This document shows positions 12-35,138 of a DNA stretch of 36,229 bases, one piece after another; within the stretch, counting starts at the first letter, position 1; each line of letters opens with the position of its first letter. A program made the position numbers and the translations under genes. This stretch comes from Armatimonadota bacterium (GTDB lineage: Bacteria > Armatimonadota > UBA5829 > DTLH01). The stretch covers positions 1 to 36,229 of the forward strand of contig JBDKSP010000062.1 of NCBI GenBank assembly GCA_039680575.1. The letters are read 5' to 3'. The notes beneath the pieces were generated by a model. It was not told the DNA's origin. It did not search any database and was given only the letters and a program-made list of their open reading frames with translations.

Positions 12-177
12 CCTACAGAGTTTCAGGAGATAAAGTAACAGCCTTACAGCTATATAAACAGTTCTCTGATGTAGCTTTATCTGTTGATTTTACACTTATA
101 CCTGAAACTCTTCCGGAAGATTTTCGGAACAGACAATATATGATTGGCCGTTAATTAATCAGCCGAAAATCTATAGG
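12..177 (+). repeat. Copy A of dispersed two-hairpin element (CCTAC-stem1-TCCGGA-stem2-ATAGG)
   Basis: CCTAC 12-16; AGAGTTTCAGG 17-27 pairs with CCTGAAACTCT 101-111; TCCGGA 112-117; AGATTTTCGG 118-127 pairs with CCGAAAATCT 163-172; ATAGG 173-177. Near-identical arms at 32003-32070 (-) and 12035-12103 (-). Confidence 0.85.
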
Positions 178-11395: not shown

Positions 11396-12025
11396 TTATA
11401 CTGTCGGAGGAGCAGTCTCTGCCTGCTCTTCGCTGGTTTCTACCTCAGGCTCGCCATGCATATGCGGATGCCTTACGGTAATTACGATCATGTCCGGCTT
11501 CGTGGCAAGCTCTATACCCTCAAGAAGCGGAATATCTGACGCATGGATAAAATGTCCGATCTGCAGATCAGTTATATCCACATCGACTTTTGAGGGAATA
11601 TGATCTGCGCGGCTCTTGATCTCCAGTTCATCCATCATTATCTCCAACACGCCGCCATCTCGAACACCTGCTGCATCGCCGACAATCCCTATTGGCACTG
11701 ATGTAGTGACAACATCCGACAGCGAAACGCGCTGGAAGTCCACATGAAGCACCTTTCTATTGATTGGGTTGGTCTGAACGCTCTTGATTACTACGATACC
11801 GCCTTCTCCGTGTTCAGCTCCCTCGATGCTCAGATCGAAGACACCATGGATTCCTGCCTCGGTGCGGAGCACGACCGCAAGGTCTGGGAGCGCCACTTCA
11901 AGTGGAAGCGCCGCCTTCCCTTTGCCATGAAGCGAGCCGGGAATTTTACCATGCCGTCTCAGTTCTTTCACATGGCTTTTTCTCATGTCTTCACGCAAAT
12001 GAACTTGTAGTTTTAACTTTTCCAA
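11396..12025 (-). CDS. rplY: 50S ribosomal protein L25 / general stress protein Ctc
   Basis: LRRHGKIPGSLHG, VQTNPINRKVLHVDFQRV, GVRDGGVL, IPSKVDVDITDLQIG; TTG at 12025 after TAGGAGG. Confidence 0.92.
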   Translation of the reverse strand: MEKLKLQVHLREDMRKSHVKELRRHGKIPGSLHGKGKAALPLEVALPDLAVVLRTEAGIHGVFDLSIEGAEHGEGGIVVIKSVQTNPINRKVLHVDFQRVSLSDVVTTSVPIGIVGDAAGVRDGGVLEIMMDELEIKSRADHIPSKVDVDITDLQIGHFIHASDIPLLEGIELATKPDMIVITVRHPHMHGEPEVETSEEQAETAPPTV

Positions 12026-12034
12026 CTTATACCT

Positions 12035-12103
12035 CCTATAGATTTCCGGCAGTTCAGTTAGCAGCCCCAATCGAATGCCGGTTATTGCCGAAAATCTTCC
12101 GGA
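12035..12103 (-). repeat. Copy B (3' half) of the two-hairpin element, in the rplY leader
   Basis: Minus strand TCCGGA-AGATTTTCGGCA...TGCCGGAAATCT-ATAGG(AGG); stem contains a U-G wobble on the sense strand. Confidence 0.8.
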
Positions 12104-31163: not shown

Positions 31164-31326
31164 AGGAGACCTCCCATTGCAGTCAGAATTGTATAATCAA
31201 ACGCATTTTCAAAAAAAGGCACACTCTCCACTAACCCGCTTGGGCAAAACAGCAGTCCGAAGCATCGGATTACAAGATTAGGCTATTATTACACATCCGG
31301 GATCAGAGATCTCTCTTATGCCAGTC

Positions 31327-31351
31327 CGGGCTGCATTACAAATGCAGCCCG
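31327..31351. terminator. Hairpin downstream of purO
   Basis: Perfect 11-bp stem CGGGCTGCATT-aca-AATGCAGCCCG. Confidence 0.6.
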
Positions 31352-31388
31352 AGTAAGAGAAGTAAAAAAACTGACAGATGATTGCTAA

Positions 31389-31994
31389 TTACTTCTCGTG
31401 CGGATTATACACTGCGAACTCATCCAGCCATGCTGCGGAGCATATCGGCCGTTCCAATGTGTCGAAGAAACCGCCGTTCACGACAAACTTCGCTGCATCG
31501 AGCGCAGTCGATGCGCAGAACGGATGATAAATCTCTTCTATAGTGTTGAGTTCATACGTGCAGATTACTTTACAGGATTTATCTTTCAGGTCGAAACCTT
31601 CGACTTCGATACCGTTGTCCCTGACAATCCCCAAATAGCCCTTTTCGGGCGTAACGATTCCGGCAATTCTCGGAGTGTTGAACTGATCGCGTTCATAGCC
31701 CATCTTGAAAAGTACATCGTGAAGCGCGGCTTCCGGTGAAGCGCCTTCCTCCATCATGCGATAGATGGGATCGGTATGGCTGCCATTGGAGACTACCACG
31801 CCGCCGCGCGATACCCGGATACAGTTATAGGCAATGTAAGGGTTCTTTTCTATCTCAGCCGGGTCAAGCGGTTGTATGGCAACACCCTCCGGCGTGATTC
31901 GAGCAACACGGTTTGGAAACGAGCGGGATGATACCCGATAAGCAACAAATGGTCTGTCTGTTTTTCCGACAACAACTATTCTACCGACGTACAT
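31389..31994 (-). CDS. purO: Archaeal-type IMP cyclohydrolase PurO
   Basis: MYVGRIVVVG, YRVSSRSFPNR, NPYIAYNC, VSNGSHTDPI, GYERDQFNTPRIAG motifs of the PurO Ntn-fold family. Confidence 0.9.
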   Translation of the reverse strand: MYVGRIVVVGKTDRPFVAYRVSSRSFPNRVARITPEGVAIQPLDPAEIEKNPYIAYNCIRVSRGGVVVSNGSHTDPIYRMMEEGASPEAALHDVLFKMGYERDQFNTPRIAGIVTPEKGYLGIVRDNGIEVEGFDLKDKSCKVICTYELNTIEEIYHPFCASTALDAAKFVVNGGFFDTLERPICSAAWLDEFAVYNPHEK

Positions 31995-32002
31995 CAAAGC
32001 CT

Positions 32003-32070
32003 CCTATTGATTTTCGTCAATTGCCGAAAATCTTCCGGAGAGTTTCAGGTATTATCTGAAACTCAGTAGG
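32003..32070 (-). repeat. Copy C (minimal, complete) of the two-hairpin element, forming the purO 5' leader
   Basis: Minus strand CCTAC-t-GAGTTTCAG-ataatac-CTGAAACTC-TCCGGA-a-GATTTTCG-gcaattga-CGAAAATC-a-ATAGG(AGG). Confidence 0.85.
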
Positions 32071-32081
32071 ATTTATGTGTC

Positions 32082-32143
32082 AGTTTATCACTGCTATTAA
32101 TCCAAGTCAACGCTTGACTTGCTCATTTATCCAGTGCTAGAAT
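32082..32143. promoter_or_regulatory. Back-to-back divergent sigma70 promoters (purO and STAS-HATPase gene)
   Basis: Minus TTGACT-17-TAAACT (32110-32082); plus TTGACT-18-TAGAAT with TG extension (32114-32143). Confidence 0.6.
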
Positions 32144-32231
32144 CAATCGGAATTAATTGCGAACGACTTTACGCCGCCACCGGAAAAGTGACGGCGTTTA
32201 CAGTGTTTGGTCCGGCTTGCCGGGAGGAACG

Positions 32232-33008
32232 ATGGCAGTAATTGATAGCATCGATATAATGCACTCTCCGATGGTAACACTCGTTGGCGAATTGGACTCC
32301 GATGGATGCGGAAGAGCAACAGATGTTCTCCAGAGGCTCCATGAGTCAGGCTATTATTCCCCTCAAATCGACCTTGCCGGAGTCCGATCGATGGACTCTG
32401 AAGGGATTCTTGCAGTTATCAGGTGGTGCAATCAGTTCAGCGAAAGCCGTGGAGGGTTTAAAGTAATCTCGGTGAACCCATTGGTAAAACGCTTATTCGA
32501 AATTGCCGGATGTTCCGATATAATCCACCAGTCAGAAGAGTTCAGTATTCCACCACATCACGACCGCCAACCAATTACCGATTGCATTGCCGCAGCAGGC
32601 GATTGGGAACTCCGATCTTTTTCAGTTGCCGGCAGGCTCGATTCCTGTAAGATAGTCAGAGACAGGATAGATGAGACTGCTTCCAGAATGCGATTCACAG
32701 ATGGTGAACTGGGAGACATAAAACTGGCGGTGGGAGAGGCTATATCTAATGCGATCCGGCACGGTTGCAGCGAAAATCCTGATGCAAGGGTAACTATTCG
32801 AGTGCTCGCTACCATTGATAAACTGGTGATAGAAATGACTGATAATGGTCCCGGTTTCAACCCGGATGCCACTTCGGACTCATCCATGGAAGCATTACTC
32901 CCTGAAGGCGGGATGGGGATACGCTTCATGCGCCATTGCATGGACGAAGTATCTTTTCAATTCTTCGAAGGGACCACGATCAGGCTGATAAAACTCGTTA
33001 AGCCATAA
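32232..33008 (+). CDS. Fused anti-anti-sigma (STAS) plus anti-sigma kinase (RsbW-like HATPase_c) protein
   Basis: LVGELD...IDLAGVRSMDSEG STAS; LAVGEAISNAIRHG, DNGPGF, EGGMGIRFMRHCMDEV HATPase; GGGAGG RBS. Confidence 0.88.
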   Translation: MAVIDSIDIMHSPMVTLVGELDSDGCGRATDVLQRLHESGYYSPQIDLAGVRSMDSEGILAVIRWCNQFSESRGGFKVISVNPLVKRLFEIAGCSDIIHQSEEFSIPPHHDRQPITDCIAAAGDWELRSFSVAGRLDSCKIVRDRIDETASRMRFTDGELGDIKLAVGEAISNAIRHGCSENPDARVTIRVLATIDKLVIEMTDNGPGFNPDATSDSSMEALLPEGGMGIRFMRHCMDEVSFQFFEGTTIRLIKLVKP

Positions 33009-33017
33009 AACCCACAA

Positions 33018-35138
33018 CTATGCAGCCTTATCCATTTCATCCTTCAGCGATTTGAGCAGTTTTCTGAGTTTACCTGAGTTCTCCAGATGCTCAAGTGCCT
33101 CAAATATCCCTGGATCGAACTGACAGCCGACATTTTCTTTCATATTTCTAAGAACATCACCGGAGCCGAATGCAGCACGATATGCTCTGTCACTTGTCAT
33201 GGCATCGTATGCGTCCGCTACGGCGATTATTCTTGAAGCGAGCGGAATATCCTCGCCTGCAAGCCCGTCCGGGTATCCTGAACCATCATAGCGTTCATGG
33301 TGATACCGCACTATTTTCGCCACCTGCTTGAGCTGAGGCGCATTTGAAAGTATTTCTGCTCCTATGACACTGTGCTGTTTGATAATTGCGAGTTCCTCGT
33401 CGCTTAGCGCTCCTGGTTTACTGAGAATGTCGTCCGGGACTGCTATTCTTCCGACATCATGGAGCAGCGCTGCAGTCCTGATCGTGCTCATTTCCTCACC
33501 GGATAGCTTGAGATGCTGGCCTAACGCAAGAGCGCAAATGGCAACCTTCTCTGAGTGGCCGCGCATAAGCGGATCGCGCGCATCCACGGCAGCAGCAAGC
33601 GCCCTGACGGTTGAAAGACTGCCTTCTCTCATCGCAAGGTGGATAGTGACTGGGCCATCCGTGCTTGCAGGCTCCTGATCCTGCACTATATTGTAAGACC
33701 TTACTGCATTTCTGGATGTATTCTTTGCCGCGAAAAGCGCAAGGTCAGCAGCCATAATAAGCTCATCCCCACGCATTGCGTGAGTCGGATAGGAAGAGAC
33801 ACCCAGGCTAACAGTGAACTGGATTGAGAGCTTTGAACTGCTTCGTCCCTTTGTTCCGGCTACTTTCATTTCGAACACGGTGTTTTCGACCTTTTTTCGG
33901 ATACGCTCGGCTGCCGCCATAGCTGACCTCAGCTTCGTTTCGGGCATGATAACCATAAACTCTTCGCCGCCATATCTTGCAACTACATCCGTATCTCTCA
34001 CCATATCCTGTAAAAGATGCGCCAGTTGTCTGAGTGCCTGGTCTCCAACCTGATGACCATATTCATCATTGATCTGCTTAAAATGGTCTATATCGAGAAG
34101 TGCGATTGCAAGGGAGCGGCGATATCGCTTAGACCGGTTCAATTCCTGGCTCAATCGTTCCTGCAGATACCTGTGGTTATACACTCCCGTCAGTTCATCA
34201 ATCATCGCATGCTGGGCAAGTGTGTAGACTCTTGATTGAAACATAACCTGGAGTGCCATTATTAAACAACACAGAATAATTGCAATTGATACGATCTTGG
34301 TCGTCCTCGCGGCATCTATTATCTTGTTCCTGGGCGTAATCGTTATAAACGATGCGATAGGCTCATTATTCCAGTCCTTAAGACCATGCCACACATATAT
34401 ACGCTTATGATGATCGGTGCCTACACGGACCGCGGTACCTCCGTTTCTCATACTATCCAATTTATTTACTGATATATTCTTCGGAAGAAGATCCGCAGTT
34501 GTTTCGCGGTCATAGATAATTGGTTTATCACCGGCATACAAAGCCAGCCCCAATTTCGCGGTCGATGCGAGCTTCGATATGATTTCTCTATCCAGTAATT
34601 TCGCGGTAGTCAACGTTCCATTTATGGGACCTTTTCCGGAAGAATGCAATACCGGAGCAGCAGCTATCATATAAACGGAATTTCCACATCGAATGAACCC
34701 AACCGATTGTTTTCCCTTAGCAGCGGATGCAATGGCCGGCTGGCTCATAATTTTCTTCCTGAGCCTATCGTTCAAGCCGGAAGATGCGACGATATTCAGC
34801 TTTTTGTCTGTCAGAACAACGACTTCTATCCCGAAATGCTCAGGAAGCCATCCGATGAGGTTTTCTTCAAGCCACTCTTTATCCGGGTGATTAACAATAC
34901 TCCAGGTCTCATCCCAAAGCGAATGGTCGGTCAGGCATCTTTGAAGAGATATACACTGATCATTGAGCATGGATAAGCATATTTGCATATCTCTTTTGCG
35001 TTCCATGGATTCTTGCTCGTTGAATCGTGTGACTGCCATTCTGTAGCTCACGAAACCGTATATTAATAGAGGTATTATTATGATTAAAGGAAGTTTGCTT
35101 GCGGAAACCAGTCTATGGGTGCTTAGCTTGGGATGCAC
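33018..35138 (-). CDS. Membrane CHASE4 sensor - GGDEF - HD-GYP c-di-GMP enzyme
   Basis: DHSLWDETW CHASE4-like periplasmic domain between two TMs; DELTGVYN, DIDHFKQINDEYGH, RDTD I-site, GGEEF; HSEKV, HDVGR, HHERYDGSGYPDGL. Confidence 0.92.
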   Translation of the reverse strand: MHPKLSTHRLVSASKLPLIIIIPLLIYGFVSYRMAVTRFNEQESMERKRDMQICLSMLNDQCISLQRCLTDHSLWDETWSIVNHPDKEWLEENLIGWLPEHFGIEVVVLTDKKLNIVASSGLNDRLRKKIMSQPAIASAAKGKQSVGFIRCGNSVYMIAAAPVLHSSGKGPINGTLTTAKLLDREIISKLASTAKLGLALYAGDKPIIYDRETTADLLPKNISVNKLDSMRNGGTAVRVGTDHHKRIYVWHGLKDWNNEPIASFITITPRNKIIDAARTTKIVSIAIILCCLIMALQVMFQSRVYTLAQHAMIDELTGVYNHRYLQERLSQELNRSKRYRRSLAIALLDIDHFKQINDEYGHQVGDQALRQLAHLLQDMVRDTDVVARYGGEEFMVIMPETKLRSAMAAAERIRKKVENTVFEMKVAGTKGRSSSKLSIQFTVSLGVSSYPTHAMRGDELIMAADLALFAAKNTSRNAVRSYNIVQDQEPASTDGPVTIHLAMREGSLSTVRALAAAVDARDPLMRGHSEKVAICALALGQHLKLSGEEMSTIRTAALLHDVGRIAVPDDILSKPGALSDEELAIIKQHSVIGAEILSNAPQLKQVAKIVRYHHERYDGSGYPDGLAGEDIPLASRIIAVADAYDAMTSDRAYRAAFGSGDVLRNMKENVGCQFDPGIFEALEHLENSGKLRKLLKSLKDEMDKAA

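Follow-up and report, generated by a model that had tools for sequence, protein, structure and literature searches.

What is the pair of hairpins in front of purO? In the window (the whole 36,229-nucleotide stretch of an Armatimonadota contig analysed here), a minus-strand motif sits between a sigma70-like promoter and purO, where the initial annotation proposed a new three-way-junction leader RNA and listed, as other options, a MITE/REP-like repeat that supplies ribosome-binding sites or a protein operator or recombination site. The structure is probably a copy of a genus-restricted, MITE-like repeat that duplicates TA and carries two hairpins and a linker, with the purO copy being a short double unit.

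The double hairpin in the purO leader

The features of the locus, with A, A', B and B' denoting the four arms, are as follows.

31389..31994, minus strand: purO, IMP cyclohydrolase-like protein (PF07826; profile match E 7.9e-55), ATG at 31994
32000..32004, minus strand: host Shine-Dalgarno (SD) sequence GGAGG, already in the sister species' empty site
32005..32006, minus strand: right TA, also the first bases of the host TAGGAGG
32007..32066, minus strand: 60-bp four-arm element, a decayed copy of the short form, lying in the purO leader
32064-32056, minus strand: arm A, GAGTTTCAG
32048-32040, minus strand: arm A', after a 7-nt loop
32039-32033, minus strand: linker TCCGGAA
32032-32025, minus strand: arm B
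32016-32009, minus strand: arm B', after an 8-nt loop
32067..32068, minus strand: left TA, putative target-site duplication
32082..32110, minus strand: sigma70-like promoter TTGACT-17-TAAACT, identical in the sister species

In the order A, A', B, B', the element forms a 9-bp hairpin with a 7-nt loop and an 8-bp hairpin with an 8-nt loop; TCCGGAA connects the two, and TAGGAGG comes next. The hairpin pair and linker first described here are real: the leader region folds more stably than shuffled sequence (z = -4.29), and 86 four-arm copies occur in this 2.97-Mb genome and none in each of three shuffled genomes. The sequence string originally given for the motif lacks three single bases and is otherwise correct, and the promoter named with it is present at 32110-32082 on the minus strand. 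Hairpin B of this copy has uncompensated changes, as decay would give.

Comparable boxes, lying about as far away, can be read by eye in many other purO leaders. PurO, an archaeal-type IMP cyclohydrolase, is present in 28 of the 31 genomes of this taxonomic order that were searched, mostly with a very short leader. Divergent, back-to-back promoter-like sites at 32082-32143, whose -35 boxes share one palindrome (32103-32121), serve purO and a STAS plus anti-sigma kinase gene at 32232-33008; convergent with the latter is an open reading frame at 33018-34970 (minus strand) with GGDEF-like and HD-GYP-like motifs recognised by eye. A different multicopy palindromic repeat lies 3' of purO at ~31282-31360 and coincides with a depth peak and many contigs on both strands.

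A repeat family bounded by TA

Core matches number 145 in this genome and 3, 0 and 2 in three shuffled genomes. Copies are 60-159 bp long, and only 8 of the 86 four-arm copies overlap a gene predicted by our gene calls. Two further copies lie in the window.

16..173, plus strand: young long-form copy of 158 bp, with TA at 14-15 and 174-175
12039..12103, minus strand: half copy made up of the linker and hairpin B, preceding the rplY TAGGAGG
11396..12025, minus strand: rplY, ribosomal protein L25/TL5, with the TTG start at 12025 taken from sequence and sister alignment

These confirm two recurrences that the initial annotation had pointed out, of the architecture at the window start and of its 3' half upstream of rplY. 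The rplY half copy occupies the orthologous site in the same-genus sister species (G001; this genome is G000) as well.

Each basic unit has two inverted arms of 9-10 bp, and a TA lies beyond either end. Loop sizes vary step-wise, at 7, 13 or ~75 nt for one hairpin and 5 or ~35 nt for the other, and the linker ranges from 6 to 8 nt among copies. TA-to-TA pairs shorter than 200 bp comprise 68 with a linker and 50 two-arm units without one, the latter clustering at 32-33, 60 and 100 bp, with many of exactly 60 or 100. Single units (~33, 60 and 100 bp) coexist with tandem double units built on a palindromic linker. As the lengths of double units come close to those of two singles added together, the four-arm form would be a tandem, or the singles would be deletions between its direct repeats. 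The inverted arms are near-perfect in two-arm units and imperfect in four-arm units (2 mismatches in 9), and the terminal two bases differ between subfamilies.

Among 301 genomes of the phylum, the degenerate core has 100 matches in this genome, 35 in G001, one in each of four others and none in the remaining 295, and by this measure the family is confined to one genus among the genomes searched. In a GTDB-wide core scan, the true matches listed all come from one Armatimonadota MAG; 31 of the 52 loci listed are from other taxa, none of them with a TA-bearing flanking arm. A scan with hairpin B listed scattered matches outside Armatimonadota, none with the linker, and metagenome and viral scans gave 0 matches. 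Armatimonadota matches of these wider scans are not taken as independent of the phylum-genome searches. A three-arm scan turned up intergenic double hairpins with similar arms in Microbacterium (L150, L155, L158, L159), Paludibacteraceae (L169, directly 5' of an ATPase-like gene) and an Acidobacteriota MAG (L162); they lack the linker and TA at both ends, were left out of the count, and may reflect either convergence or a wider class. Many contigs of this genome break off inside young copies of the element or of its host MITE (see below), so the copy numbers are lower bounds.

Conservation ends at a TA two bases beyond each outer arm, and TA flanks both ends in 61 of the 78 copies with flanks, in a YTAR context. 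For copies outside the second, larger repeat described below, TA is found on both sides in 36/53 and on each single side in 44/53, with a pyrimidine before TA in 48/53 and a purine after it in 47/53. The commonest abutting direct repeat is TA at offset 2 (36 of 52 copies), and an 8-bp direct repeat flanks the element in 0/52 at any offset tested.

Nine sites of this genome were compared with their orthologous sites in G001, whose PurO is 95% identical. At C61, C89 and purO both flanks align and the empty site has a single TA, although the purO left-flank alignment requires one indel and substitutions. The sister's purO leader has the same promoter, a spacer of equal length, a single TA and GGAGG, and no element, which argues against the proposed switch or leader RNA. 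C102 and C21 agree with a single TA on one flank, the empty ortholog of C91 reads TA-GGAGG, and at C49 G001 has no TA at the position, contrary to the TA rule; C9 is filled in both species, and C82 and C86 gave no informative comparison. In the reverse direction, 10 of 21 element loci in G001 have a two-sided ortholog in this genome, 3 filled and 7 empty, several of the 7 not clean-cut, with poor alignments at L074 and L081. With both shared and lineage-specific sites, the family holds old shared copies and young lineage-specific ones. The element core was absent from all 26 relatives' purO leaders whose upstream DNA was readable (27 other loci considered). In one other study, contigs of two runs carry the purO insertion; none has a joint across it.

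About 25-40 element copies, depending on the criterion, are nested in a second, larger repeat, a MITE that we take to be IS66-type, where they occupy the loop of an internal hairpin. This repeat had been considered a CGTC REP, an assignment dropped once 8-bp duplications identified the hairpin as the inner part of a larger MITE: 13 of 41 composite ends have both host-MITE termini within 300 bp, and at these 13 the 8-bp duplication is perfect in 5 and 7-of-8 in 2. The host MITE has terminal repeats and 8-bp duplications of its own; the element has neither. Nested copies probably spread as cargo of the host MITE. They break the simple TA rule, since empty host loops have TT in place of TA in 32/32 paralogues and 3/3 orthologous empty sites; a single founding event, with later spread as cargo and conversion between the host's inverted halves, would explain this.

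A third repeat, a hairpin of 8 bp with a 3-nt loop, occurs at G000 C9, C20:63967, C24:47593, C89:19144 and C107; three of these copies contain the element and two do not. The unoccupied hairpin has TAC, and the C is missing where the element is present. A further small palindrome lies inside the hairpin-B loop at L048, L154, G000:C30:3973-4094 and G000:C69:7001-7093, making three levels of repeat nesting; the L048 palindrome lies at a TA and is bordered by TA at both ends. One copy, C43, is a fully palindromised hybrid.

IS630-family elements are described in the part of PMC2170065 consulted as inserting into TA and duplicating it, and TA-ended bacterial MITEs (RUP, Correia/NEMIS, ERIC) are linked to IS630/Tc1-mariner elements in the portion used of a review (PMC2229807). 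The TA and YTAR signature makes a DDE enzyme of this IS630/Tc1-mariner type the best inference: such a transposase would act in trans on the non-autonomous element, and insertion would duplicate the target TA. On the best reading, the family would be a newly found TA-flanked MITE-like repeat whose mobilising enzyme was not located. The only DDE_3 match in this genome is a contig-end fragment of an IS630 remnant with termini unrelated to the family, and G001 has none. No cognate IS630 with these ends was found in G000-G005, which are fragmented MAG assemblies, so the IS630 link stays inferential; the cognate DDE enzyme may be lost or unassembled. IS630 itself prefers CTAG. A Y1_Tnp search of five genomes found no Y1 gene of G000 or G001 that bears these arms, none of 18 transposase loci (Y1 and IS630) has a matching end pair, tblastn with DDE_3 and Y1 proteins found no transposase carrying these ends, and 5 of 13 long TA..TA pairs, inspected by eye, have ordinary genes inside. 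The IS630 remnant (G000:C98:15085-15335) has TA-flanked ends that also occur on C9, C97 and C104; it was considered as the autonomous partner and rejected for its different termini.

The apparent closing stem and rival readings

The leader-RNA proposal had the 5' UCCUA pair with UAGGA of the SD in a stem (P1) that closes a three-way junction. Removing the element and one TA at purO restores a palindromic target, CC-TA-GG; with that target and a duplicated TA, 5' UCCUA and 3' UAGGA are host flanks that look like P1. Insertion at purO would have been into the TA of CC-TA-GG, directly before the host SD, and the duplicated TA in a palindromic target would then produce the apparent stem. Outer-flank pairing in 52 other copies is mostly 2-3 bp and reaches at least 5 bp in 4. 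In 17 short-form copies, pairing is 92-93% for the inner hairpins and 58% for P1, the two outer P1 pairs are unpaired in 13/17 and 9/17, and covariation for the three-way junction is 0.101 versus 0.100 when shuffled. When the leader is folded with 20 nt of coding sequence, P1 has a predicted probability of 0.0 and the linker pairs with the SD instead; in isolation, the three-way junction is predicted at -24.2 kcal/mol versus -21.3 for two free hairpins. P1 as a conserved helix is not confirmed. The alternative fold suggested for the 3' strand of the first stem and the 5' strand of the second (A':B) does not compete either: it is predicted at -9.9 versus -21.3/-24.2 kcal/mol, more than 11 kcal/mol worse, so a switch is not predicted.

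Non-nested copies lie in 26 tandem, 14 divergent and 4 convergent gaps by our gene calls, resembling the intergenic YTAR background of 62, 26 and 12%, and their mild sense excess is non-significant (17/26, p 0.17; 11/15, p 0.12). Twenty-four other genes start within 70 nt downstream, 20 of them with a Pfam match; they include an ABC ATPase, NifU, ketoacyl synthase, DXP synthase, shikimate kinase and a glycosyltransferase, share no common pathway, and none is a purine gene. Many copies in background-like region classes, with no significant orientation bias and with covariation no higher than shuffle, are what the initial annotation had named as speaking against a leader RNA, and they bear out its dispersed-repeat option. 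Rfam gave 0 matches at gathering score across the window, and the four matches at E<=10 over 31950-32200 are all far under that score. No RNA dataset was listed for the locus, and the only contig from the one RNA run compared was 89 nt long and fell within the repeat; neither result speaks for or against expression.

In one respect, placement departs from fully random, an oddity of SD proximity: GGAG directly follows 5 of 62 right ends, versus 52 of 7716 intergenic YTAR sites (0.67%; p 6.5e-5). TAGGAGG is present in the empty site at both SD sites with a readable empty ortholog, purO and C91; of the other GGAG-abutting copies, rplY is filled in both species and C88 lacks a usable ortholog. Since the purO and C91 SDs exist in the empty sister sites, the element lands on or survives at SDs and supplies none, contrary to the idea that the repeat provides ribosome-binding sites. 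If SD-proximal targeting is real, it would be an unusual path to regulatory change.

Compatible with the MITE reading is a possible, if improbable, co-option of the purO copy as a constitutive translational damper or mRNA-stability element. The predicted cost of opening the SD-start region is 6.1, 6.4 and 2.5 kcal/mol in the filled leader and 2.5, 4.7 and 1.4 in the empty sister leader, 1.1-3.5 kcal/mol costlier with the element, with values that vary with the length of coding sequence folded. Any effect on purO would, judging from folding, be passive: ligand-independent, partial masking of the SD that possibly damps translation. The insertion's recurrence in the two runs of the other study fits such a role, as do effects of MITE RNAs on neighbouring mRNAs in other systems, reported in the review as used here (PMC2229807), but the uncompensated changes in hairpin B suggest decay, the sister species does without the element, and the folding outcome hinges on how much coding sequence is included.

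It is unlikely that the family is instead a repeat of REP/CIR-like hairpins whose movement or copying works on single strands and recognises hairpins (an HUH enzyme or template switching), with TA as part of the element and a preference for hairpin loops and SD-proximal sites. IS200/IS605 ends are not symmetrical, and the two ends of this element are; the GTAG/CGTC tag is absent 5' of the hairpins, the Y1 genes of both species lack these arms, three clean empty sites have a single TA, and the nested copies are explicable by a founding event with host-MITE spread and conversion. What such a route would account for is the replacement of TT or TAC in host hairpin loops, the palindromised hybrid C43, the GGAG excess, and the compensation of arm changes within hairpins between subfamilies (16 and 19 two-sided changes among 47 arm types, versus 5 and 1 for cross pairings, with partners picked by complementarity and few independent events). 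Some tyrosine transposases are also flanked by double-palindromic TIRs, according to the part consulted of PMC3733652.

Also unlikely is a miniature element that does not depend on a standard IS630 transposase for its movement and that is steered towards, or retained at, two kinds of site: the TA in TAGGAGG ribosome-binding sites and the loops within other hairpin repeats. If true, an RBS-guided element would repeatedly put a double hairpin with an anti-SD-like linker before genes, and translation would be retuned genome-wide.

The quasi-palindromic A'-linker-B core has ~10-bp arms and is the best-conserved part of the element, as a protein operator or Xer/dif-like recombination site might be, but with ~100 copies, a linker of 6-8 nt, a core always within a TA-bounded unit of polymorphic presence and no regulon among the neighbour genes, this option is very unlikely. 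Also very unlikely is a three-way-junction riboswitch that senses a ligand, or some other leader RNA of the purine pathway: it has in its favour a position in the predicted 5' UTR overlapping the SD, the predicted stability of the isolated junction and an open ZTP niche (no ZTP riboswitch family in the five family genomes searched), and against it the lack of the element in 26/26 informative orthologous leaders, unrelated neighbour genes, an unconserved P1 without covariation, the unfavourable alternative fold and no Rfam match.

Comparison with known systems

Reading the purO structure as a TA-duplicating MITE-like repeat removes one false riboswitch candidate and brings in a repeat family from a phylum that has had little study; no account of Armatimonad miniature inverted repeats or of a purO riboswitch turned up in the literature searched. 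The locus also illustrates that a palindromic target combined with TA duplication can imitate a closing stem over an SD, and the natural pair of filled and empty purO leaders offers a ready test of insertion effects on translation.

Beside its host MITE, presumably of the IS66 type, the element has no 8-bp duplication of its own, and ~25-40 of its copies ride in the host's hairpin loop. Like the GTAG/CGTC REPs and the TIRs linked to TIRYTs, as far as described in the part used of PMC3733652, it consists of short hairpin units, single or dimeric, in tens to hundreds of copies; unlike those REPs, it has no tag, no adjacent tyrosine transposase was found, and TA stands on both sides.

With the CIR repeats of Caulobacter and Brucella, as the review summarises them in the portion consulted (PMC2229807), it shares two independently folding arms, a linker, TA termini and an intergenic location, as well as a mobility mechanism that is not established. 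By that description CIR is conserved across a class, whereas this element is genus-restricted, and the purO copy has no GANTC site.

RUP, Correia/NEMIS and ERIC differ from this family in sequence and, in the same partial account, in being one end-to-end stem where the main form here is two hairpins and a linker; unlike IS630-linked MITEs, this element has no cognate IS630 found for it. What it has in common with them, again within the scope of the review as used (PMC2229807), is a length below 200 bp, non-coding sequence, about 100 intergenic copies, strong folding, a TA at each terminus with the target duplicated, and a frequent location close to genes or within other repeats.
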